Part shown: positions 5,577 through 55,652 of the stretch, in pieces
Position numbering within the stretch: the stretch's first letter is position 1
Layout of the letters: each line of letters begins with the position of its first letter
Assembly (NCBI GenBank): GCA_951406725.2
Contig: OX597833.1
Coordinates: 41,850,001 to 41,914,000, forward strand
Reading direction: 5' to 3'
Length of the DNA: 64,000 nt
From: Octopus vulgaris
Taxonomy: Eukaryota
Program-made: the position numbers and the translations under genes
The notes under the pieces: model-generated
What the model was told of the DNA's origin: nothing
Database searches by the model: none
Seen by the model: only the letters and a program-made list of their open reading frames with translations

Positions 5577-6303
<727 letters not shown>

Positions 6304-6307
<4 letters not shown>

Positions 6308-6611
6308 CGTCACCGTGACCGACCAGGCTATCAGATGTTGCTACACATCGCTGTTCACAATGTGCTTCGCATTGTTTTAGCCTTCAAATGACGCCACCCC
6401 GCTTGTTAAGCGGGCAGGCCAACAGAAGAAAGAGTGAGAGAAAGTTGTGGCGAAAGAGTACAGCAGGGATCGCCATCACCCCCTGCCGGAGCCTCGTGGG
6501 GCTTTAGGTGTTTATGCTCAATAAACACTCACAACGCCCGGTCTGGGAATTGAAACCACGATCCTACGACCGCGAGTCCACTGCCCTAACCACTGGGCCA
6601 TTGCGCCTCCA
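6304..6611 (-). mobile_element. tRNA-derived SINE (head type C: GGAGGCGCAATGGCCCAGTGGTTAGGGC)
   Basis: A and B boxes; head shared with 24202-24587. Confidence 0.85.
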
Positions 6612-6742
6612 TTAAAAATTATAAATGGAATAGAATGGAATTATAAAAATTCTTTGCGCATGGTGAATGAACGCTATTTAAAAATTATGAATGGAATAGA
6701 ATGGAATAATATTTTAATCAACGTAAAAGACAGAATTTACTA

Positions 6743-7900
6743 CAAATTCTTTAATAAAACAACCATGATAAACGAAACTCAACTATACATATAATGATAA
6801 AACCTCCCTTTACCAAACACTATAACATACCTATATAGCAATCTCCCTAATCTATACATTCACACACAAATACACACACATAAAACACACACCCACTACA
6901 TATACATATACCCACTCCACTCACACCTACATATACATACGTACAAACTCGATATATACACCAAAATATTCACACCCACACCCATACAGATAAATAAATA
7001 TATATATCCATAAAAATGGGTGCAATCCCATGCACATCAATCATGCATGTATACAAGTGCATACACAAGCACACACTTTTACATAGCAATCATGCACTCC
7101 TGCATCTACACATGCACTTATACACGCGCACATGCACACACACCCATGCACATGCATATTCACGGACACTCTCCTAAACATCTAAATATACGTATAAATG
7201 GCTACAAACAATACCCAATAAAAAACTACCATAATTAACATACCAAGCTATAATACATGGGGACTAAATATACTAAAAAATTCTTTAATAAAACAATCAT
7301 GATAAACGAAATCCATACATACAAATATAAAGATAAAACCCCCTTACCAAATACACAATACACACAAATACACACACATATATACACACACCCACAAACA
7401 TAACCATATACACACTCACACATACAAATACATACGTACAAAACGCGATATATACACCATATACATTCCCACACCAATAGATTATTAAATAAATACATAT
7501 ACAAACATAAATATATATATATATATAAAATATATATATATATATATATATATACATTCACACATATCATCACATACACAAATAAATAAAATACTCTCTC
7601 TCACAAAAGTAAATAAATATTTAATAAATGTATATATGAGTGTGTACACGCAGACGGGTGCAATCACACGCACATTCAAACATGCATGTATACAAGTGCA
7701 TAAATAATCACACTCAATTACATAGCCACTCATACACTCCCGCATCTACACTTGCACTTGTACACACGCACACATGCATACACACCCATACCTACATATT
7801 CACGGACACTCTTCTAAATATCTATATAAACGTATATTGCAACAAACAATACCCAAATAAAACTGCCATATCAACATACCAAATATAATACAAGGGGATT
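6743..7900. repeat. Diverged tandem duplication in the PLE 3' UTR (units about 6743-7277 and 7278-7900)
   Basis: Colinear shared anchors: aaattctttaataaaacaa.catgataaacgaaa; catacgtacaaa; gggtgcaatc; catgcatgtatacaagtgcata; catattcacggacactct; aaacaataccca; tataataca.gggga. Confidence 0.85.
7078..7321. repeat. Downstream pseudo-LTR copy
   Basis: Near-identical to 10741-10984. Confidence 0.92.
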
Positions 7901-8275
7901 GTAAACATTCACACATACATACAAAACTCAATATATACACCACTAAATACGCCCAAATCATCCATAAATAATATATATCCACATATATACATATAACATA
8001 TACATAATAAAATAAATAAATAAATAAGTAAATAAAATAAAAGAAATCTAATATAAATAAATAAAGTCTTAACTTACCAAACTCAATATACCATAAACCA
8101 TATTATATATACCATATTATATATTAATATACATTAATAATAAATTAATGAAAACAAAGAAATACCAATTAAAGACTAACTATAATTAAAGCCTAAACTA
8201 CATAACTAAAAATATATGGTACTCTAAACTAAAATTAATATTAAACTAAAGTAACCTATAATAGGGAGCTATTAA

Positions 8276-10738
8276 TTATGTATCATGAAACTTATTATAT
8301 AGGTAAAGTAACCTATGTCTGCATTTTATTTTGCGCTCTTCACCTGTATTAAGTAAATTATCATACTTATAAAATAAAATTTCTTTAAACTCATTAGAGC
8401 ATAAATAACAACAATTCGCTCCTATAGTATATGATTTAGTTTTACAAATTATTTCCCAAGTTAAACTATAATTAATATTTTGTGATTTAAGTCTCCAAAT
8501 GTACTTACTAAGTCCAGTGGAGTTGATTAAGTTTTTATTTTTAAAAGAATTCAGATGTGTGATTCTTAATTTTATTTTAGAGGAAGTAGACCCTATATAA
8601 ACCGCTTTTGGGTAATTATTATTCTTAAAGTTATTATCATGTAATGTAACTATACATTTATACACTACATCGTTAATATCACATTTATTATTTAATTTAC
8701 ATTTAGATTTATCTCTACAAGTACAATTAATATATGTCTTATCTTTATTATTATTATCAAATAATTTATTTTTATAAAAATTATTCAATTTAAATTTATT
8801 AAATGAAGAAATAATGTTACCTACATTATTAGTAGTGGAATAACCTACTCCAAAATTATTACTAGAGAAAATGTTTTTATATTTACGATTATCTCTAATA
8901 AAAAGTTCTATAATATCTAAAATCTCTTTGATAATATTCGTTTTTACTTGATCACCATAAGGAACTATTAACCAAATTTTATTCTTATTAACCTTATTAC
9001 TATCATTGTCATTATTATAATTATTATATTTATAATTCTTTATCTTATTAAAATTATTAACAGAATTATATTTATGTACAGCATTTAAGGAATTATTAAT
9101 ATTATTAATTTTATCAATATTATTATTATTATCATTATTAAATTTGTTTTTTTTATTCTTATTTTTATTTTTATTATTTTTATTTTTATAATTTCTAATA
9201 TTTTTACCACTAATACTAACAAAATTATAATTATTATTATTATAATTATCTCGAAAATAATTAGTTATATCTTTATCTTTAATATTATAAAATTTAATAT
9301 TCCTATTATAACCAGCCCCTCTAAGGGCCTCATTATAATAAGTAGTATGTTTATTAAAAATCTCTATATCATAAGAGAGTAATGAAATACGTTTACTTAT
9401 ATTATTAATCAAAGATTTTTTAATAGAATGTGGGTGATTACTATTAACATTTATATATCTAAGGTTCTCATTAATTTTATGATATGGTTGTGTTTTACCT
9501 GTAATTAGATTAAAATTAACATCTAAATAATTAACATTATAATTCTCCTTATATATAGTAATACTTAAACCATATCTTTTAAAGAAACTATATAGTTTTT
9601 TCTTATATACTTCTAGATTCCTATTAGTACAATTCTTTGTAATTAGTAGAAGATCATCTCTATATAAACCACCCTCTATCTTAAGATTTTCTAATTGGAG
9701 TTCGGATAAAAGGAAAATACCTACTAAATCAGTAGCTTGTGCAGAATCTGGTGCTCCCATAGGTATATCAAAACAATCTCTAGTATCATTCCTAGCCCAT
9801 AATTTATTTTTATATTTAATGAGCGATTTCCTAGCCATTTTAATTACATTAACTTCTTCAAGTGACATTCCCACTTTATTCATTGCGAAAATAAGGGCTT
9901 TATTAAACACAATTTCATTAATAGAAGAATAATAATTATCTATATCTATTTGAATAAATTTATAACGATTTTTATCTTTAATATTATTAAACCATTTCAA
10001 TGTATTGTTATTACTAAACCATAATTTTAAATAATTAAGTTTATTTAATTTATTAATATATTTATCTAAAATAAATTTACTTAATTTACCTAGGTCAGAT
10101 TTACATGGGCAAATTAATCTAACTTTAGGGTCTGAATAAAAATGATCTTTATGGTCTTTAAGAGTAATTCTGGGGTGTAAAGGTACATAAGGTTCAGTTT
10201 TATTATCCAATTCATATTTTAACATTACTAATTTAGAGGCCTTATTAATATTATAAAGTATATTATCTGGAACAATTTTATATTTTTTAATTATTTCTTT
10301 CCCTAAGAGTTTATCATATAATTTAACATCTAATTTATATAAATTCCTAGTTTTATCAGATTGTACTATAATACCATCCATATTTCTCATATCTTTAATT
10401 CTAATAGCTAAGTTTCTTAAATATTCATTATTTCTATTTGGGTATTTATGGAATTCAATATTTTTTACTACCTTCCATATATTATCTTCTAGTAATTGTA
10501 ATTCTTTATTGAATGGAGGTTCCTTTCTAGATTTAAATTTAGAGGTAAAATTATCATTCCTACTATCATTATCATTAAATAAATAAAAATTATAGTAATA
10601 AGCTTTCCATTTAATTCTAGAAATAAAACCTTTAACATTATTAATAAGTTTCAAAATAAATTCCTTTCTAGAAGGTATAGGAATATCTTTCAAAGATGAA
10701 TCCCAAAATAGCAGTTCTATCTTACCTGTAAATTCCAT
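8276..10738 (-). CDS. Penelope-like element polyprotein: reverse transcriptase plus C-terminal GIY-YIG endonuclease (Hydra-clade-like)
   Basis: Uninterrupted 820-aa ORF. N-terminal IPIPS..F..RIKWKA; RT motifs KDHK..P.VRLICP, IQIDIDNYYSSI, PMGAPDS, GLYRDD, YLDVNF; thumb SNHPHSI; linker CTC-x5-C; endonuclease VVYKC...VYIGST..R; C-terminal CYLC..E...LLN..E..KCRH. Confidence 0.93.
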   Translation of the reverse strand: MEFTGKIELLFWDSSLKDIPIPSRKEFILKLINNVKGFISRIKWKAYYYNFYLFNDNDSRNDNFTSKFKSRKEPPFNKELQLLEDNIWKVVKNIEFHKYPNRNNEYLRNLAIRIKDMRNMDGIIVQSDKTRNLYKLDVKLYDKLLGKEIIKKYKIVPDNILYNINKASKLVMLKYELDNKTEPYVPLHPRITLKDHKDHFYSDPKVRLICPCKSDLGKLSKFILDKYINKLNKLNYLKLWFSNNNTLKWFNNIKDKNRYKFIQIDIDNYYSSINEIVFNKALIFAMNKVGMSLEEVNVIKMARKSLIKYKNKLWARNDTRDCFDIPMGAPDSAQATDLVGIFLLSELQLENLKIEGGLYRDDLLLITKNCTNRNLEVYKKKLYSFFKRYGLSITIYKENYNVNYLDVNFNLITGKTQPYHKINENLRYINVNSNHPHSIKKSLINNISKRISLLSYDIEIFNKHTTYYNEALRGAGYNRNIKFYNIKDKDITNYFRDNYNNNNYNFVSISGKNIRNYKNKNNKNKNKNKKNKFNNDNNNNIDKINNINNSLNAVHKYNSVNNFNKIKNYKYNNYNNDNDSNKVNKNKIWLIVPYGDQVKTNIIKEILDIIELFIRDNRKYKNIFSSNNFGVGYSTTNNVGNIISSFNKFKLNNFYKNKLFDNNNKDKTYINCTCRDKSKCKLNNKCDINDVVYKCIVTLHDNNFKNNNYPKAVYIGSTSSKIKLRITHLNSFKNKNLINSTGLSKYIWRLKSQNINYSLTWEIICKTKSYTIGANCCYLCSNEFKEILFYKYDNLLNTGEERKIKCRHRLLYLYNKFHDT

Positions 10739-10740
10739 AA

Positions 10741-10984
10741 TTTACATAGCAATCATGCACTCCTGCATCTACACATGCACTTATACATGCGCACATGCAC
10801 ACACACCCATGCACATGCATATTCACGGACACTCTCCTAAACATCTAAATATACGTATAAATGGCTACAAACAATACCCAATAAAAAACTACCATAATTA
10901 ACATACCAAGCTATAATACATGGGGACTAAATATACTAAAAAATTCTTTAATAAAACAATCATGATAAACGAAATCCATACATA
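10741..10984. repeat. Upstream pseudo-LTR copy (direct repeat of 7078-7321)
   Basis: 244 bp with one mismatch seen (tacatgcgc vs tacacgcgc); ends 2 nt before the ORF ATG. Confidence 0.92.
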
Positions 10985-11081
10985 GTTGATTATATATAGA
11001 TTATATATATTTATATTCTTTCATTGATAAATTTATATTATTTTAATTTTATATTTTGAAATATTGATATTTTTAGATCGG

Positions 11082-11135
11082 AAATCCACCTGACGAATGT
11101 CATTTGAAGACATGAAACAATTGTAGTGGCGATTT
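11082..11135 (+). ncRNA. Minimal type-I hammerhead ribozyme (intact core)
   Basis: CCAC-CTGACGA-ATGTC(atttgaa)GACAT-GAAA-CAATTG-TA-GTGG. Stem I CCAC/GTGG is extendable with AAAT/ATTT, stem II is 5 bp, stem III is the palindrome ACAATTGT, and the GUA cleavage site follows 11125. Confidence 0.88.
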
Positions 11136-11304
11136 ATTTACTTTATATTAAAATTTTTTATGTATTGATTAAGTCTTTCCTTGTTTGATATGCAAAATAG
11201 TGGTTTTGTCTCGAATTAATATTATATAATATTTTACTATAAAATTGGATTTAAATCTAAATCTGGGTTTTTTTCCCTGTAATTTTGGATTTATTCCCTA
11301 ATAT

Positions 11305-11375
<71 letters not shown>

Positions 11376-11453: not shown

Positions 11454-13714
11454 TTAGCAGAGATACCCAGCATTGCTCAGGATTAAAATGGCATTGCAGC
11501 ATTGACAACAAAACATTTGTAGAGTAAATGATGGGCTAATTCGGCTAAGCAACATGCTATGCATTCATTTGGAGTATTTCAGGCCCTAACCTGTGGGGGG
11601 TTTATGTGATTTTTGAATGCACTGAAAAGCTGTCTAGTTGGCACTGTGTCTAATATGACCCATCATCTGAAATGTTGACACCTCCTTCGAGTTTGTTGTC
11701 CTACATCACTCATAAAGTAAATTTGGAGGAACTGTTGTTGTTCATTTATGGGTAACAGGGAACCAATGAGGTGATAGACTTGCCCTTGAACTTTGACGTT
11801 GGTGTAAATTCATGTTTATCTATCTTCTTAGATGCACCAAACGATGTCATTTGTAGAGTTGTATTGTCTGAAAATCCTTTGACTGGATGGAAATGCCTTC
11901 TAGAAGATCCATAAGAGGTTGAGAAGGAGCTGGTAGTGCTGGCAATGTTACCTGACCACCTGAGCAGCACATACCATTTGTTTCATTTGAAAATTTTAAA
12001 GCTCTGCATAAATGACAATTTGTGTTTAGCACACCAATTTGGACAGAGTTATCATTTTTACAAGAATGGGATGGAACAGATTCAAGAGTTGTGAAGAACG
12101 AATTTGTACGTAGTCTGTTTCTGAGAGCTTTTCTATTGGACTTCCGTCTAATCATTTAAATATTGATTAATGAACCAGCATTAACTGCTGCAACATGCAT
12201 TTGCTGATCTTGAGAAAATCTCATCTAGCTTCTCTCTTCAGACTCTTGCCTTTGGTTTTCTACAATCCTCCTTGCTTTATACTTGTTTCTGGAGAGATTA
12301 CGTCTTTTCTTTGGTAGCATATTTTTTCCAATATTGTAAACAAAAAATTTTGAACATAGAAAGAAATTATACATTAATCCCTATTTTTGTAAGCAGTTGT
12401 AATCGTAAAAATTTATTTGAAGAGAGCAGAAATTGAAAGATGAGAAAGCAAAAAGAACAGAGAAAGAAAGTGAAAGATGTATATACGTCTATATGAAATG
12501 GGTGTGTGTGTATATGTGCATGTGTGTGCATGTGTATGCATGCATGCATGTGTGTGTGTATGTGAGAGAGAAAGAGGGTGAGAAAGAGAGATAGAGTGAG
12601 TGAATGAAGGTGTGTGTCATGATGATTGATATCTTATAGAGAATGTGACATCATCGTATAAAATGTTTACGATAGTTGATTTATGGAAAAGATTATGTTA
12701 AATTTTTGAAATGCAAATATGTGAATAGAGGTTAAGTTTAATTTGTAGCTGAAATAGTACTGAATCTTTTGATACCCCATACGTCAAAACCTGTAACTCG
12801 GTTTTGGTATGCATAAGGAATATATATATATATATATAGGACAGTATCTCACATTACAATAGAGGTGTAATACTGAAATAGTGTAAGAGATAAGAGATTG
12901 CTCTATGTTCACACTAAGCAAGAAGTTGGAAATTATTTTGGCCCATGACACTCTTGGCTTTTGTATTTGACACCTGTTGCTTCAAGTATTTTATTTCGAT
13001 TTTATGTATATATGTATGTGTAAGCCAATGAGGGAGACCTCTACATGGTAGCTAGACCTGGTAGAAATAGCAGCCAAATCTCCCTCAAAACACCATACTG
13101 TCTTAATCCGACAATTTTACCTATTATGTAGTTTGAATGAGAAACTGTAACTAAAGAGAAAGATTAACCCCAAAATTTTACGCATTTTAATAGCAATCAT
13201 TTATTTCTCTTTTTTGCTTAATTAGTAGTTTTTCATGTCAGATGCAAAGGTGAAGAGGGTTAACTTGGACGGTGTTGGGTAGTGGAGATGTTTGGTGATT
13301 GTATGTGGTGATTACTTTGGACTGTTTCTTCTTAATAAGGATAATTGATTGATAACGAATCTTAACACAATATATATACTACCACTTCAAGTGGAATTGG
13401 ACGTCATAAGAGAGACAGCGTAGTGACGATTTTGGCTGACTGTCATCCTGTACGCCTCTTGTTGCTAGCGAAATGGTATGTGCTGGCTGTCTGAGCAACT
13501 GGTTGATTTTAATGGTAGAACAAACAGGACAAAAAGATTACAAAAATAGCGATTCTCACTTTGAAACTAACAATTTTGAAAATCTTCTTAGATTACGGAA
13601 CGCTCCACTCTCTCATATATTCATGTTTAAAATTTCAGCGTGATCGGATGAACAATACTCGAATTATAAGTGCACAAACAAACAGACAGACAGAACGGAT
13701 TTTAAATATTAAGA
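11454..13714 (-). mobile_element. Internally deleted Helitron with a Rep/helicase N-terminal pseudogene
   Basis: 5' TC end followed by (CTGT)n; 3' decayed hairpin CCTGAGCAATGCTGGG plus CTAA (for CTAG). Frameshifted peptide from ATG 12320: MLPKKRRNL..CHLCRALKF..E..GMCC.GG.V.LP..QMTSFGA..KVQGQVYHLIGSL..FLQIYF. Confidence 0.8.
11690..12320 (-). pseudogene. Helitron RepHel N-terminal fragment (zinc-binding / helitron-like domain)
   Basis: Conserved Helitron motifs split across ORFs 11847-12155 and 11746-11970 by frameshifts. Confidence 0.8.
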
Positions 13715-16740: not shown

Positions 16741-17316
16741 TACTATTACCACTGTCATATTATTTACCCCCTTGTCCCCGTTTGTCAGTGCAACTTCCTC
16801 CAGTTTCTGATGTCTTCATATGAAACAAAACACACTGGACTTGTTACCAATAAAACATATTGAAACTTACAACTAGCACTTTGTGTTCTTTATTTTAAGT
16901 TACTTATCCAAGCTCTTCCAAACAATTAACTCTAAGACTTGTGGGTATATGTATGTGTGCGTGTAGGTATATATATATATATATAATCATCATCATTGTT
17001 TAACGTCCGTTTTCCATGCTAGCATGGGCTGGATGGTTCGACCGGGGTCTGGGAAGCCAGGAGGCTGCACCAGGCCCAGTCTGATCTGGCAGTGTTTCTA
17101 CAGCTGGATGCCCTTCCTAATGCCAACCACTCCATGTAGTGGGTGCTGGAAATGACCACGATCGGTTGGTGCTTTTTACGTGCCACAGGCACGGAGGCCA
17201 GTCGAGGTGGCAGCGCTGGCAACGGCCATGTTTGGATGGTTCTTTTACATGCCACCGGCACTGGTATCACAACTGCAATTTCCATTGATTTTTTGAAAAT
17301 TGCATATATATATATA

Positions 17317-17450
17317 TATTATATTAAATTAGAGATAAAACCACTATTATTTATCTCTAATTTAATATAATATATATTTATACTATAAAATTAGATTTAA
17401 TCCTAAATCTAATTTTTCCCTGTAAGTTTGGATTTACTCCCTAATATTAT
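17317..17450 (+). mobile_element. Very short PLE-type 3' end with a 5' inversion
   Basis: Hairpin tatattaaattagagataaa/tttatctctaatttaatata followed by the same tail as 11195-11305; lies in (TA)n. Confidence 0.65.
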
Positions 17451-19745: not shown

Positions 19746-20612
19746 CATGGTGTCCCAAAAGTCACTGATGGATTTCAATTTTTAATAACTTCCTTAACTT
19801 TACGAATGAATGCATGAAATTTTGATACAATATAAAGGGCATAATGGAAATTAATATGTACCCATTTTGGAACCCCACTACATCACATATGCAAAATGAC
19901 ATCACTTAAATAGCAGCCATTTTTGGCTTTGCATGCCTGTGCTCTTTCCAAAACTTGCACTATACTACCCTCAAGAGTTTCAGACCCTACTTCTCTAATT
20001 TCTCTATTGATGTTCTCCTTCAGTTGCACCAGGGTCTCCAGTTTGTTGACGTAAACCCTCTCTTTCAGGTATCCCCACAAGAAAAATTCTGGGCTAGTCA
20101 AGTCAGGGGAATGTGAAGGCCAGTTGACATTGCTGTAGCAGGAGATTATTCTCTTTCCAAAGCATTGCTTTAGCAACTGCATTGTTTCTCTAGTGGTATG
20201 AGCAGTTGCCCCATCTTGCTGGAACCATGTGTAAGGTCTACTTTGAATGGGCGGACGCACAAAGGTCTCAATCATGGATACCTGAAAGAGAGGGTATACA
20301 TCAACAAACTGGAGATCTTGGTGCAACTGAAGGAGAACATCAATAGAGAAATCAGGTAAGTGGTGTTTGAAACTCTTGAGGGTGTTATGGTGCAAGTTTT
20401 GGAAAGAGCATGGGCATGCAAAGCCAAAAATGGTTGCCAGTTAAGTGATGTCATTTTTCATATGTGATGTAGTGGTGTTGCAAAATTTGACTTGTGCATG
20501 TTAATTTCCATTATATCCTTTATAACTGTATCAAAATTTCATGCATTTATTTATTAGTGAAGTTAAGGAAGTTATTAAATTGAAATCCGTCAGTGACTTT
20601 TGGGACACCCTG
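19746..20612 (-). mobile_element. rosa/DD41D-type Tc1/mariner deletion derivative with inverted repeats of about 330 bp
   Basis: Arms 19746-20074 and 20276-20612 begin CA(G/T)GGTGTCCCAAAAGTCACTGA. Peptide WFQQDGATAH...WPSHSPDLTSPEFFLWGYLK has 41 residues between the last two acidic catalytic positions. Confidence 0.85.
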
Positions 20613-21280: not shown

Positions 21281-22286
21281 TTATTTTCCCTGAGCTTTCA
21301 TTATTAAATGATTTGTGATCCCTAATGAACCCCCAATTGCAAAACGTACAAAATTATCGCCCATCAATGGTCCCATGGCATACATTCCAGGCTCTTTGAT
21401 TGCTTCATAAGAAAAAGGGTCCACTTGGATGGGATTATGTTTACTGTCAATAGATTGTTTTTCAATGGTGCCTAGATATTTCCCTTCTTGTGGCAGGAAT
21501 GCTAAGTTAGGTTTTGCACCAATCAATACAACAGCCAAGGAGGTATTCAGGGTACTTATGTTGCAGCTGTTTTTAAGACACTTTATCAGTACTTTGTTGT
21601 CTTTCTGCAGTTCTTCAACCTGATGCCTGGAATATGGTTTATAAAGGTCGTTCACTTCTTTACCTTTCATAAGAGAGTATACTCTGTGATATTCAGGGTA
21701 CATGCTTAGAGGTAACTTTTTGAAAACCAGAGATGAATCATTTGGACTGACACGAAATACATGAGCAACAGAGATATCATTTTCGAGAGCCATCAAAATA
21801 GCATCAGCAGCAGATAGGCCAGCACCAACAACAACAACAGGATCAGAGTCACTTGCAATCTCTTTTTTTGTAATCATTTGTTCAAAAGCTTTAAGGGAGT
21901 GTACCACATAAGGCAGATTTTCCCCAGTGGTACCTAATCGGTTAGGTAGGTCCGTCGTACCTGTAGCTAAAACTACTGAGTTGCTTTGGAAACAAAAGTC
22001 CTCGTGTGGAAAAGGTTCCTGGCCATCACGTCGTTTTGTATCCACTTTATGTCCGCGTACTTCCCATAAAAATTTATGGTCTGCTTTAACATTTTGACAG
22101 CAAGGCATTGCTTCTCCACTCTCACAATCAATTCCTTCACAAGTGTCCAGAACTTTCTGCACAGAACTAACTAAATAACCATTGCGGAAATTCTTGTAAA
22201 TGTTCTTTTCTTTTAAAAAATCGCAATAATAGTTGCGGACATCTGCAACTGTTGCACGATTGTCTTTCCTGTTTTTTTCAGACACC
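21281..22286 (-). CDS. OSGIN: OSGIN-family terminal coding exon (FAD/NAD(P)-binding domain)
   Basis: TTCTTTCTTCAG acceptor at 22287. Motifs VVLATG, VVVVGAGLSAADA, YPEYHRVY and GMYAMGPLMGDNFVRF; TAA stop at 21281. The full spliced CDS is 1497 nt (498 aa). Confidence 0.95.
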
Positions 22287-24040
22287 CTGAAGAAAGAAAA
22301 AATATGAAATCTGATCAGATTTAAAGAACAAACATACATATAAGAGAGTAATACAATGTGTTTAGTTATTAAAACTGTTTGATGACAAACAAGAACTATT
22401 ATGTGAAATCTAGCAAGACATTTTTGATTAATGTAAAGTTTCTAGTTTGACAATAAGGCTGACACTACAATTTCATTAAAAAAATTAATTAATTTTGATT
22501 AGAAGTTGTTATTAGTGAAAAGAAAATTGACGAGCCTTAAAAAGTTATCTCTAAATAATTTTTGTATGTCTAGTGTTTTATGGTTCATACTGAAATTCCA
22601 TACATAGGAACAAGCTATAAAAGTATTTTGTACTTAGATGAAATTTATAAGGCCAAATTAACAGCCATATAATATGAATTTTTAAGAACATCTTTTACAG
22701 GTGTCATTTTACTGGTATTATCTATCTGACCAAAAAAAGGTGGCAAGCTGGCAGAAACATTAGCACACCGGGTGAAATGCTTAGCAGTATTTTGTTTGTC
22801 TTTACGTTCTGAGTTCAAATTCTGCTAAAGTCAACTTTGCCTTTCATCCTTTTGGGGTTGATAAATTGACTACCAGTTGCGTACAGAGGTTGATCAAATC
22901 GACTGGCACCCTCCCCCAAAATTTCGGGCCTTGTGCCTAGAGTAGAAAAGATTATCAGACACAAACTTGTCTAAAAATAAAATTTTCTTTTCCCCTTGTT
23001 TTTCTTTTGAAAATTCTAATATCTGAAAAATTGGTTTCAAATTTTGGTACAAGACCAACAATTTTGGGGGAGTGGGGTATGTCAATTACATTGAGCACAC
23101 TGGTACTTTTTTTTTTATCAACTTCGAAAGGATGAAAAGCAAAGTCAAACTTGGCAGAATTTGAACTCGGAATGTAAAGATGGACGAAGTGCCACTAAGC
23201 ATTTTACCTGGCATGCTAATGACTGTCAGCTCACTGTCTGTACATTTGAAATATATCTGAAGTGTGAAGAGATCTGTACACAGTGTAAAAAAATTAAAAT
23301 TTCATTGGTCTGTGGTCAGTATTATTTCTTATATGCTTCTACCTAGAAATCAAAGGAAATGACTACTATTTCCTTCAAACATTGCTTTTGTGGCCTGGTC
23401 ATCAATGTTTTGAAACCAATTCAGTTCTATTACGTTTCAGACAGATTCAGTGCTGAGTTGCTGAAGCAGAAATATCGTTATAGTAAATATTCTGCTCAAT
23501 AGCACAGATTTGCTTGTTAGTTGCTTGCCTTAATCACTTGCGTATGTCTCTTAGTGGCTGACAATATGTGCATCTCATATGTCATCATCTCTGCTGGTGA
23601 GGAGTAGTGGGGGGGAGCATCACAGCCATGTGTTGAGAGGGATTCTTTGGAGTTTGAATAAATGTAAGAGAAGCAAAGATTGAAGGAAATATCAGCCATT
23701 TTTCATACTTCCTAGGAGTAAGCAAACAGGAGATAACAGTTGCTACCCAAGGACAAAAATCGTGTTATACAGTGTAATCAATTCATAAACTCCAATCATT
23801 GTGTAATAGTGTCAAACAAGGCACATAACTCTGCTCGCTTCAGTTTATTAGACCAAAAAAATTCTACTCCTTCTTCACGATTGAGTGATAAACATCCACC
23901 AACAAAACAAAGCCGTAATAAAATTAAAACAAATAAAAGATGAAACAGAAAGTAAAAAAATTTCTCACTCATAGTCGTATTTTACAATAGTTTAACTGAT
24001 GTGACAATGGGGAAACGACAAAGGATTATGAAATACTTAC

Positions 24041-47424: not shown

Positions 47425-48645
47425 AAAAAAAAGTTTTGGGAAGCTATTATTAGGAATTTTCCAAAAATTCTAGGTATTACTCTATTATCAACTCGCACAC
47501 AGTTAGGATTGGTTTTACCAGCACAAAAATCTCTTACAAATTATCTCCTCACATTATATTAGTCTGTTAATAAGAATCCATTTACTAATACTAACATTAA
47601 TTTAGCTAATACCATCAATCCCCTTAGAAATATTAAGAACAAGGTTATTGTCTCTGAAGACAATTCCAACAGAATTAAGTTTATGTCAAGTAATTCTAAG
47701 ATTAAAAACTCTATATACCAGAATAAAATTACTTCAGGTACCGATATCTTTTTTTATACAGGTAGTTCTTCTTCTCAGTTATCTAAAAGAATTTCTAATC
47801 ATTACTCTACATTTAGGGATAGGAATAAACATAACAATACAGGGCTTAGTAAATTAATTTGGTATCTAAAAGACCATAATAAACAATTTAATTTAGATTG
47901 GTTGATTCTCTCCATTTCGTTCCCTTATGATAAAGGCAAGGAATTTTGTCTTCTCTGTAATTGTGAACTATTTTTCATTCTTTTTTCTAAAAATCCCCTT
48001 GTAAACATGGTTATAGAGCGTGCTTATCGATGTAAACATTGGCAGAAACACACCTTTAGTTCATATAAGTGATATCTACCATTATATATAATTTAAACAT
48101 TGATTTTCTTCTTACACTTCACTTCCACTTGATATATCTTTTCCCAAGACTTTAGGCTTTAATTTAATTCACATATCATTTTATATTTCTCATTTATTTG
48201 GTTTCTGATTTTTTTCTTTCCTTTACCCCTCCTCTTTCTATAAGCTACCTTTGACGTTATATCATCTAATGTTTTTTTTAAGAGAAACTTAATAGCATTC
48301 AGTTCATCACTATACATATCCATCATATTCTGTTAAAATGTCTTATTGACGAGTTTTATTTCTTCACATTACATTGTGAGAAGATTACATTGTTTTACAC
48401 CATTTTATTCCTTTGGAATAATACCAATGATATCTTCGAAACATGTGTCAGAAGTAAAAGAATTTGAATAACACCTGCGTTTAACTCCATTTATTTATTT
48501 ATATATATTATACAAAATATTTCACATAAACCTGGAGTTTCTACCTTTAAAAACAAGGTGTTACGCCCTTTTTAATTATGTGATCTTTTGCTACCTATCA
48601 ATTTTTTCTGTGTTAATTATAAACAAGGGAAAAATACACACATCT
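47425..48645 (+). mobile_element. 5'-truncated Penelope-like element (linker, GIY-YIG and 3' UTR with a decayed hammerhead)
   Basis: ORF 47683-48072: SIYQ..FYTGSS..KRISNHYSTF..TGLSKLIW.LK..W..CLLC..E..CKH, homologous to the C-terminus of the 820-aa ORF. CGAAACATGTGTCAGAAG at 48437-48454. Flanked by (TA)n/(CA)n. Confidence 0.85.
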
Positions 48646-55400: not shown

Positions 55401-55652
55401 ATTATTTACATTTGATGGATATTTATCCTCATCTTGTTTATTGTTAACATAACATTTCAGCTGATATACTGTTCAGCCTTCATCAGGTGTCTTGGGGAAA
55501 TTTCGAACCTGGGTTCTCATTCCTAAGGTATTTTTCGATGTTATTATTATTATTATTATTAGTATTATTGTTCAGGTCATTGCTTGAAATCGAACTCAGA
55601 ATCTTGGGGTTAGTAGCCCGCGCTCTTAACCACTATGCCATATGCCCGTGGG
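55401..55652 (-). mobile_element. tRNA-derived SINE-like element carrying a hammerhead ribozyme (retrozyme-like)
   Basis: Reverse complement: A-box TGGCATAGTGG, tRNA-like anticodon arm, B-box GAGTTCGATT, (AAT)n, a second B-box-like GGTTCGAAAT, then ACAC-CTGATGA-A-GGCTG..CAGCT-GAAA-TGTT-ATGT at 55490-55447. Confidence 0.75.

Follow-up and report, generated by a model that had tools for sequence, protein, structure and literature searches.

The locus

We analysed a 64,000-nt stretch of the Octopus vulgaris genome (GenBank assembly GCA_951406725.2, contig OX597833.1, positions 41,850,001–41,914,000 of the forward strand), which is called the window below and is numbered from its first letter. 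Our subject is a retrotransposon in this window, a Penelope-like element (PLE) at 6612–11317, together with the octopus family to which it belongs. The features of the locus were as follows:

5921–6304, (TA)n microsatellite beyond the short interspersed element (SINE)
6305–6611, minus strand, full-length tRNA-type SINE abutting the element at 6611, without target-site duplication
6612–8275, minus strand, 3′ untranslated region (UTR) with diverged internal repeats, ending 99 nt short of the start site inferred for the family
7078–7321, minus strand, stretch inside the UTR from which a 244-bp repeat derives
8276–10738, minus strand, open reading frame (ORF) of 820 amino acids: telomerase-like reverse transcriptase (RT), Asn-rich insert, CxCx5C linker, C-terminal GIY-YIG endonuclease
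8315–8326, minus strand, KCRH (CxH)
8399–8410, minus strand, CYLC (CxxC)
~8555–8566, minus strand, endonuclease helix with an R-H spacing of 2 residues, not 3: one in-frame codon lost, private to this copy
8585–8602, minus strand, GIY-YIG motif VYIGST
8699–8725, minus strand, CxCx5C linker CTCRDKSKC, a Hydra-clade feature
8990–9253, minus strand, Asn/Lys-rich low-complexity insert (amino acids 496–583), predicted disordered, of varying length among copies, dN/dS ~1
9653–9664, minus strand, RT catalytic motif YRDD (motif scan)
10741–10984, minus strand, second copy of the 244-bp repeat, attached through 5-nt microhomology at 7 nt before the ATG
10986–11317, plus strand, inverted true terminal segment (end of the pseudo-long terminal repeat, pseudo-LTR): last 91 nt of an intron, acceptor AG at 11075–11076, hammerhead, long tail
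11086–11129, plus strand and so antisense to the ORF, type I hammerhead motif in minimal form; stem III is palindromic and the cut is predicted to follow 11125
11318–11373, (TA)n target microsatellite

A first-pass annotation of this DNA had reported an uninterrupted 820-amino-acid ORF, and the frame was indeed stop-free in the open reading frame list; the motifs that it had named (YRDD, CxC-x5-C, GIY-YIG, CxLC and KCRH) all lay where it had placed them. It had overlooked the hammerhead at 11086–11129, the lost codon and the SINE abutting at 6611.

Architecture of the window copy

The structure of the family was derived from 20 fetched 10-kb loci. In 18 of the 20, a hammerhead segment in sense orientation was closely followed by a leader of 45 nt and then the ORF, and this segment recurred at the end of the long 3′ UTR. 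The pseudo-LTRs were direct in 18/20 copies; in the window copy they are inverted, and the terminal arm (332 nt) finishes in TA. The 244-bp direct repeat (E 2e-123) was present as the annotation had described it, with a single mismatch (7125/10788) and with its upstream copy terminating 2 nt before the ATG. Its interpretation as a pseudo-LTR had to be given up, because the 244-bp piece was directly upstream of the ORF in 0/20 other copies, versus 18/20 for the hammerhead segment; the repeat is an internal piece of the 3′ UTR, and the true end of the element is the inverted segment at 10986–11317. The derived base at the mismatch sits in the upstream piece, which likely arose by a template jump.

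In the window copy the 3′ UTR breaks off with the last ~1.44 kb of the family's sequence still to come, and this stretch was found neither in the window nor in the preceding 5 kb, the inverted arm and the UTR repeats aside. Just 7 nt of the family leader are kept, and the copy has no start site, exon 1, splice donor or sense-strand 3′ end. The hammerhead is a motif whose monomer fold was no better than that of shuffled sequences (z −0.38), and the Rfam search gave no hammerhead in the window, only sub-threshold, microsatellite-driven microRNA matches. Microsatellite matches also dominated the whole-window repeat search.

Protein and clade

An alignment of 49 sequences showed that Y359, D361 and D362 of the RT catalytic motif are invariant, as are the GIY-YIG residues Y693, Y714, G716 and R725. 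The endonuclease spans amino acids 691–808 and is thus C-terminal, with no N-terminal endonuclease. Pfam returned no match for the window protein itself, and PF01541 was matched by 3 of the 49 alignment members. A protein model made from the alignment (mean predicted local distance difference test, pLDDT, 84.6) was confident except at amino acids 496–583, and its top seven fold matches were all telomerase RTs (E 2.5e-9 to 3.8e-8). Searching the PDB with the protein sequence gave just weak matches to retron and group II RTs.

The DKT motif is present (SDKTRN, amino acids 127–132). The RWK position reads KWK (RIKWK in 23/24 copies examined), in the alignment a conservative K for R. IFD is absent, motif A being separated from motif B by 64 amino acids, compared with ~65 in Hydra-1_Obim by a by-eye count; CCHH is absent as well, with one Cys between the GIY and YIG strands. 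The window copy therefore has none of the marks of Naiad and Chlamys elements (N-terminal endonuclease, IFD, no canonical hammerhead), and it has those of endonuclease-bearing Penelope-like elements, namely a telomerase-related RT, GIY-YIG in the same ORF and pseudo-LTRs with a one-ended tail. All named protein relatives came from octopods.

The Hydra clade, in the sections of PMC8557442 that define it, is marked by a C-terminal endonuclease, DKT, RWK, CxCx5C, CxxC, CxH, a hammerhead near the 3′ end and (TA)n. Our family shares with it the single ORF, the C-terminal GIY-YIG, DKT, CxCx5C, CxxC, CxH, the lack of CCHH and IFD, the hammerhead near the 3′ end (here a motif only) and the (TA)n target, and by eye the window protein follows Hydra-1_Obim and Hydra-1_Ajap (same paper) motif by motif. 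Differences from the clade as described there are KWK for RWK, the ~90-amino-acid Asn-rich insert, a 1.1–1.8 kb intron with internal repeats, and length: 5.5–6 kb from ATG to end, whereas Hydra elements are generally <3 kb. Assignment of the window ORF to the Hydra clade is supported by the motifs and the by-eye comparison, in agreement with the first-pass placement as Hydra-type and not Naiad/Chlamys. Because its hammerhead differs from the one given for Hydra-1_Obim in that source, we treat the family as separate; it is a long variant within the known Hydra clade, and new as such.

Age and state of the window copy

Compared with two close relatives, the window copy carried private substitutions at 12/2400 ORF columns (0.5%), and the earlier claim that it is recent was borne out. 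If the clock scale in the relevant passage of PMC13282606 applies (0.09 divergence = 25 million years), the copy is roughly 1.4 million years old. ORF frames were broken in all five close relatives that we examined (L061, L141, L142, L147, L148), of which the full-length L141 was 97.1% alike to the window copy.

The annotation's word "intact" holds for the open frame and is doubtful for the endonuclease, whose helix has lost one codon. The R-x3-H spacing affected by this loss was kept in 21/21 other copies and in 41/41 parsed homologues (of 45 with the linker). The Arg of GIY-YIG enzymes is catalytic; our literature search found no passage on the role of the His. The importance of the codon loss is judged from this conservation and from general knowledge of GIY-YIG enzymes. 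Autonomy would need a promoter, an intact endonuclease and RT, and a sense 3′ priming site, a set that this sequence does not offer. The annotation's suggestion that the copy is possibly autonomous thus appears unlikely to hold, because start site, exon 1, donor and sense 3′ end are absent, the leader is 7 nt and the endonuclease has a private deletion. We concluded that the window copy is young, rearranged and probably dead.

The family in the genome

A genome search with the RT half gave 1191 candidate places, and the closest of the 40 scored was 98% identical to the window copy; a search with the hammerhead segment gave 2146 candidate places, 40 of them likewise scored. Full ORFs were read from 6 of 24 ORF starts, all in one sister subfamily and 99.3–99.9% alike (a seventh lacked the C-terminus). 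Compared with the window copy, dN/dS of the sister ORFs was 0.15–0.18 in the RT, 0.19–0.25 after the insert and ~1 in the insert. A 111-nt end piece of the sister subfamily was identical at 40/40 scored places. From ATG to end the family measured 5.5 kb in L141 and 5.9 kb in L076. We concluded that the family copied itself very recently, and that the sister subfamily, with its intact ORFs, is a likelier driver than the window copy.

No listed holder of the sequence was on record as RNA. Contigs from three runs guessed to be RNA and from one untyped run covered the RT, mostly at 90–99% identity; these contigs show neither strand nor transcription. Of their 85 differences from the window copy, 40 were listed, and 26 of these were sister-subfamily letters; 7 more fell at the window copy's private bases.

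Two further arrangements were seen in the family. In L077, L079 and L075 a start-site and exon-1 block is duplicated within the terminal region, giving nested introns of up to 2.4 kb. L258 (C9:50395800-50399900) is a tandem array of palindromic build, in which 11 or more units of 250 nt, without a hammerhead, consist of sister-subfamily tail, leader and ORF start; its appearance suggests a small circle copied many times over, or a series of template jumps.

Spliced and unspliced copies

Many insertions of the family are short pieces, often arranged head to head as fold-back mini-elements. An end at the hammerhead cut was considered for these pieces and rejected, as their breakpoints clustered at the TTTTAG splice acceptor, 43–50 nt upstream of the cut. 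Beyond the break they continued with sequence from 1.1–1.8 kb upstream, just before a GTATGT or GTAAGT donor. The terminal region thus holds a GT-AG intron of 1.1–1.8 kb with internal repeats, and its junctions were exact in two subfamilies that use different donors. Splicing was read here from genomic copies. Exact matches in the sister subfamily numbered 459 for the spliced junction and 433 for the unspliced acceptor, and reversed controls gave 0.

The spliced arms shared an end. In 43/43, the match ended no more than 25 nt from the junction, either at a TCA-CTT site resembling an initiator, which makes exon 1 23 nt long, or short of it, the ends varying within exon 1; 0/43 exceeded the initiator by >3 nt and 0/43 entered the leader. 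Among 50 arms reaching +1, the base before +1 was G in 29, A in 9, T in 6 and C in 6, where the genome has C. Counted as distinct non-genomic contexts, 13/26 had G versus 0.11 expected (p ~1e-6), and in four cases the extra G was supplied by neither arm nor flank. Copying of the cap as an extra G is a signature known from other retroelements, and we read the G at the spliced ends as probably a copied cap.

All ORF-bearing copies that could be scored retained the intron: it was kept at 19/19 scorable hammerheads upstream of ORF starts and at 16/16 downstream. Two-armed insertions paired a long with a short tail in 30/33 cases. One further locus, L157 (C22:33800013-33803119), has two spliced fold-back minis ~950 nt apart with near-identical centres.

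Proposed mechanism

Our model for the family, which we think probable, starts from a promoter in the terminal region, placed there because of the TCA-CTT initiator match and the end points of the spliced copies. This promoter would drive a unit of a 23–27 nt exon, the 1.1–1.8 kb intron, the hammerhead, two priming sites (~+105 and +186 past the predicted hammerhead cut), the 45-nt leader and the ORF. cDNA started at these sites on spliced, capped RNA would come to its end at the cap, 200–290 nt on, and give promoterless fold-back minis; ORF-bearing copies would arise solely from unspliced RNA whose transcription had continued across an ORF and on into a terminal region beyond it. Since splicing is exact in both arms of the head-to-head palindromes, the template, in this family at least, would be sense RNA and not a self-priming antisense RNA. 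A bolder reading, to which we give slightly less than an even chance, is that reverse transcription has two fixed starting points in the 5′ leader, each serving one target strand, with capped, spliced mRNA copied only as far as its cap (hence the extra G) and giving minis by the hundred, unspliced read-through RNA alone giving full elements, and sense RNA making the palindromes.

Several observations weigh against this model or limit it. Five of the 50 spliced arms ran upstream of the inferred start, by ~25 to 275 nt and never into an ORF, which suggests that read-through RNA is sometimes spliced. The scoring of upstream hammerheads left aside 14 single ORF starts that were not scorable, 11 in one tandem array and 5 loci without a start match, and the unspliced controls were drawn from loci with an ORF, which biases the sample. 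Centres were identical in several mini-elements, so that the mini counts may include re-amplified minis and not all be independent. Many of the G bases could stem from the other arm by microhomology, and the start site itself is deduced from DNA.

For the window locus we think it probable that this is a young, inverted and truncated Hydra-type copy, likely made by target-primed reverse transcription from both (TA)n strands and likely immobile now. A first cDNA would have been primed at the long-tail site and halted after 332 nt; a second would have been primed internally (or its end lost later), would have copied UTR and ORF, jumped via the 5-nt microhomology back into the UTR, and then been joined head to head with the first. 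The same combination of a long tail and an arm ending internally occurs in L146, one of 9 other close loci. Two points speak against this account. The left-end junction, at the exact SINE 5′ end, is not well explained by internal priming. The helix at the lesion is retained in the protein model (H722–727) and all RT motifs are present, so the window protein might work in trans if a host promoter read the ORF.

Alternative explanations

One competing claim is that the window copy is an autonomous or trans-acting source whose ORF is read from a flanking or cryptic promoter and which drives local non-autonomous elements. Its open frame among five relatives with broken ones, its low private divergence (0.5%) and its confident RT and endonuclease model would all fit such a source. 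However, the family start site, exon 1, leader and sense 3′ end are all gone, the endonuclease helix carries its private deletion, no daughter with the 244-bp junction occurred among 20 loci, and the listed differences in the run contigs are mostly sister letters, with the 7 at private bases besides; we regard this explanation as very improbable. A different objection concerns the minis, which could be one or a few non-autonomous families, spliced once and then self-amplified, and so would say little on how the parents are copied. The identical centres at several loci and the same 7-nt context in 13 arms are what it would predict, but the 45 arms show no fewer than 26 distinct non-genomic contexts, the minis belong to two subfamilies with different donors and carry subfamily-matched bases, and the arms end at varied points in exon 1. 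Such an origin seems improbable to us, though less so than an autonomous window copy.

The remaining two alternatives bear on the left end and the SINE. The SINE differed by 4.0% from the majority of the 29 fetched copies nearest to it (best match 95%, with 40 scored of 3305 candidates), versus 0.5% for the element, so it is probably the older of the two. This age difference disfavours a chimera made in one event, with the RT starting at (TA)n, reaching the 5′ end of a SINE RNA and switching from there to the element's UTR. The joint lies exactly at the SINE 5′ end, there is no target-site duplication, the orientation is the same and (TA)n lies beyond the SINE, all as a chimera would have it; against this, many other SINE copies have target-site duplications of their own, and a SINE was found at this UTR point in 0/29 other loci. 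Together these make a one-event origin quite unlikely. Somewhat better placed, if still unlikely, is the view that the left end bore the usual short tail on insertion and that a later ~1.35 kb deletion ran up to the SINE, which would alter the origin of the left end only. The long/short pairing in 30 of 33 two-armed cases would lead one to expect a short tail here, and the SINE's usual TG/TA 5′ flank is absent. The deletion endpoint would, however, have to match the first base of the SINE exactly, with ≤1 nt of homology, and L146 has a similar internal end without such a context. We favour insertion of the element into (TA)n flanking the SINE, with the second arm primed internally.

Other elements in the window

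The first-pass annotation had also made the window copy a candidate driver of ribozyme and fold-back elements nearby, which our results do not bear out. One fold-back of its family lies in the window:

17310–17450, tiny 140-nt fold-back of inverted short-tail and long-tail pieces, without a hammerhead

It is 86.5% alike to a close full-length copy and for that reason probably older than the window copy. In the motif scan the window yielded no other hammerhead whose stem I pairs; a relaxed scan gave a degenerate hammerhead-like core at 55486 on the minus strand, again with no pairing stem I. The fold-back at 19864–20486 (211-nt arms, 90%) is outside the window copy's family; it encloses a 130-amino-acid frame with no Pfam match, whose motifs we take to be of Tc1/mariner type.

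Three further frames were observed. An endonuclease fragment of another Hydra-type family (41% identical to the family studied here over 97 amino acids) lies at 47683–48072 on the plus strand, with a weak PF01541 match and CLLC and CKH motifs. A 352-amino-acid frame at 21281–22339 on the minus strand matches pyridine nucleotide-disulphide oxidoreductase and is probably the last exon of a host gene. A 102-amino-acid frame at 11847–12155 on the minus strand had no Pfam match and carries a CCSGGQVTLPAL motif, which resembles Helitron Rep proteins.

Relation to known elements and significance

Published work already covers octopus Hydra elements, copies in inverted arrangement, one-ended tails and inserts rich in Asn; a tail at just one end of PLE insertions, for example, is described in the part of PMC8557442 on their structure. 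Penelope of Drosophila virilis, in the sections of PMC2377424 and PMC4209133 on its transcript, shares with our family a start site in the pseudo-LTR, a short first exon and an intron ending at hammerhead helix I, but belongs to another clade and has an intron of 75 bp, compared with 1.1–1.8 kb here. According to the same sections both spliced and unspliced RNA exist and intron retention is stressed, and no intron-less genomic copies are reported in them.

Poseidon PAc of Anolis carolinensis offers the closest likeness for priming. In the experiments of PMC11167929 drawn on here, two internal RT start sites downstream of the hammerhead define the tail, and both target strands are cut and extended on an uncleaved RNA template, like the model proposed here. 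Its sites are inside the ORF, whereas ours lie 45 and ~125 nt before the ATG, ~80 nt apart; its tail is 30–40 nt with no strand difference in vitro, whereas ours are paired long and short. Penelope of Adineta vaga, as presented in the relevant parts of PMC3846280, shares an Asn-rich insert between RT and endonuclease, a TATA-like element with a TCACT initiator in the pseudo-LTR, an inverted pseudo-LTR with the tail at one end, and head-to-head palindromes. Self-priming on an antisense template was proposed there for the palindromes and intron retention, whereas splicing in our family points to sense RNA. Animal non-LTR retrozymes (bioRxiv 10.64898/2026.07.22.740005, main description) are likewise non-coding hammerhead units from PLE pseudo-LTRs, but are head-to-tail tandems; the minis are head to head, with one hammerhead per arm, and are bounded by the inferred start. 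Intron-less, cap-marked PLE copies were not found in the literature that we searched, and older Penelope papers may describe such copies. The family itself may already stand in the supplements of the bioRxiv study or in the repeat library of PMC13282606.

Taken by itself the window copy is a disabled retrotransposon of an ordinary kind. What gives the family its interest is that Craig et al. 2021 (PMC8557442, in the passage on introns) state the significance of intron retention in PLEs to be unknown, and that an antisense template has been proposed to account for it (PMC3846280, in the passage on palindromes). Its very young copies run into the hundreds and fall into two kinds, minis that are exactly spliced and coding copies that keep the intron, which makes the question of the template testable by counts within one genome. 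A second approach would be 5′ rapid amplification of cDNA ends (RACE), and a third would be in vitro work on one of the intact sister proteins, whose clade lies outside what the cited portion of PMC11167929 covers. If the bolder reading above is true, the reason why Penelope elements retain introns can be read from the genomic copies of this family.

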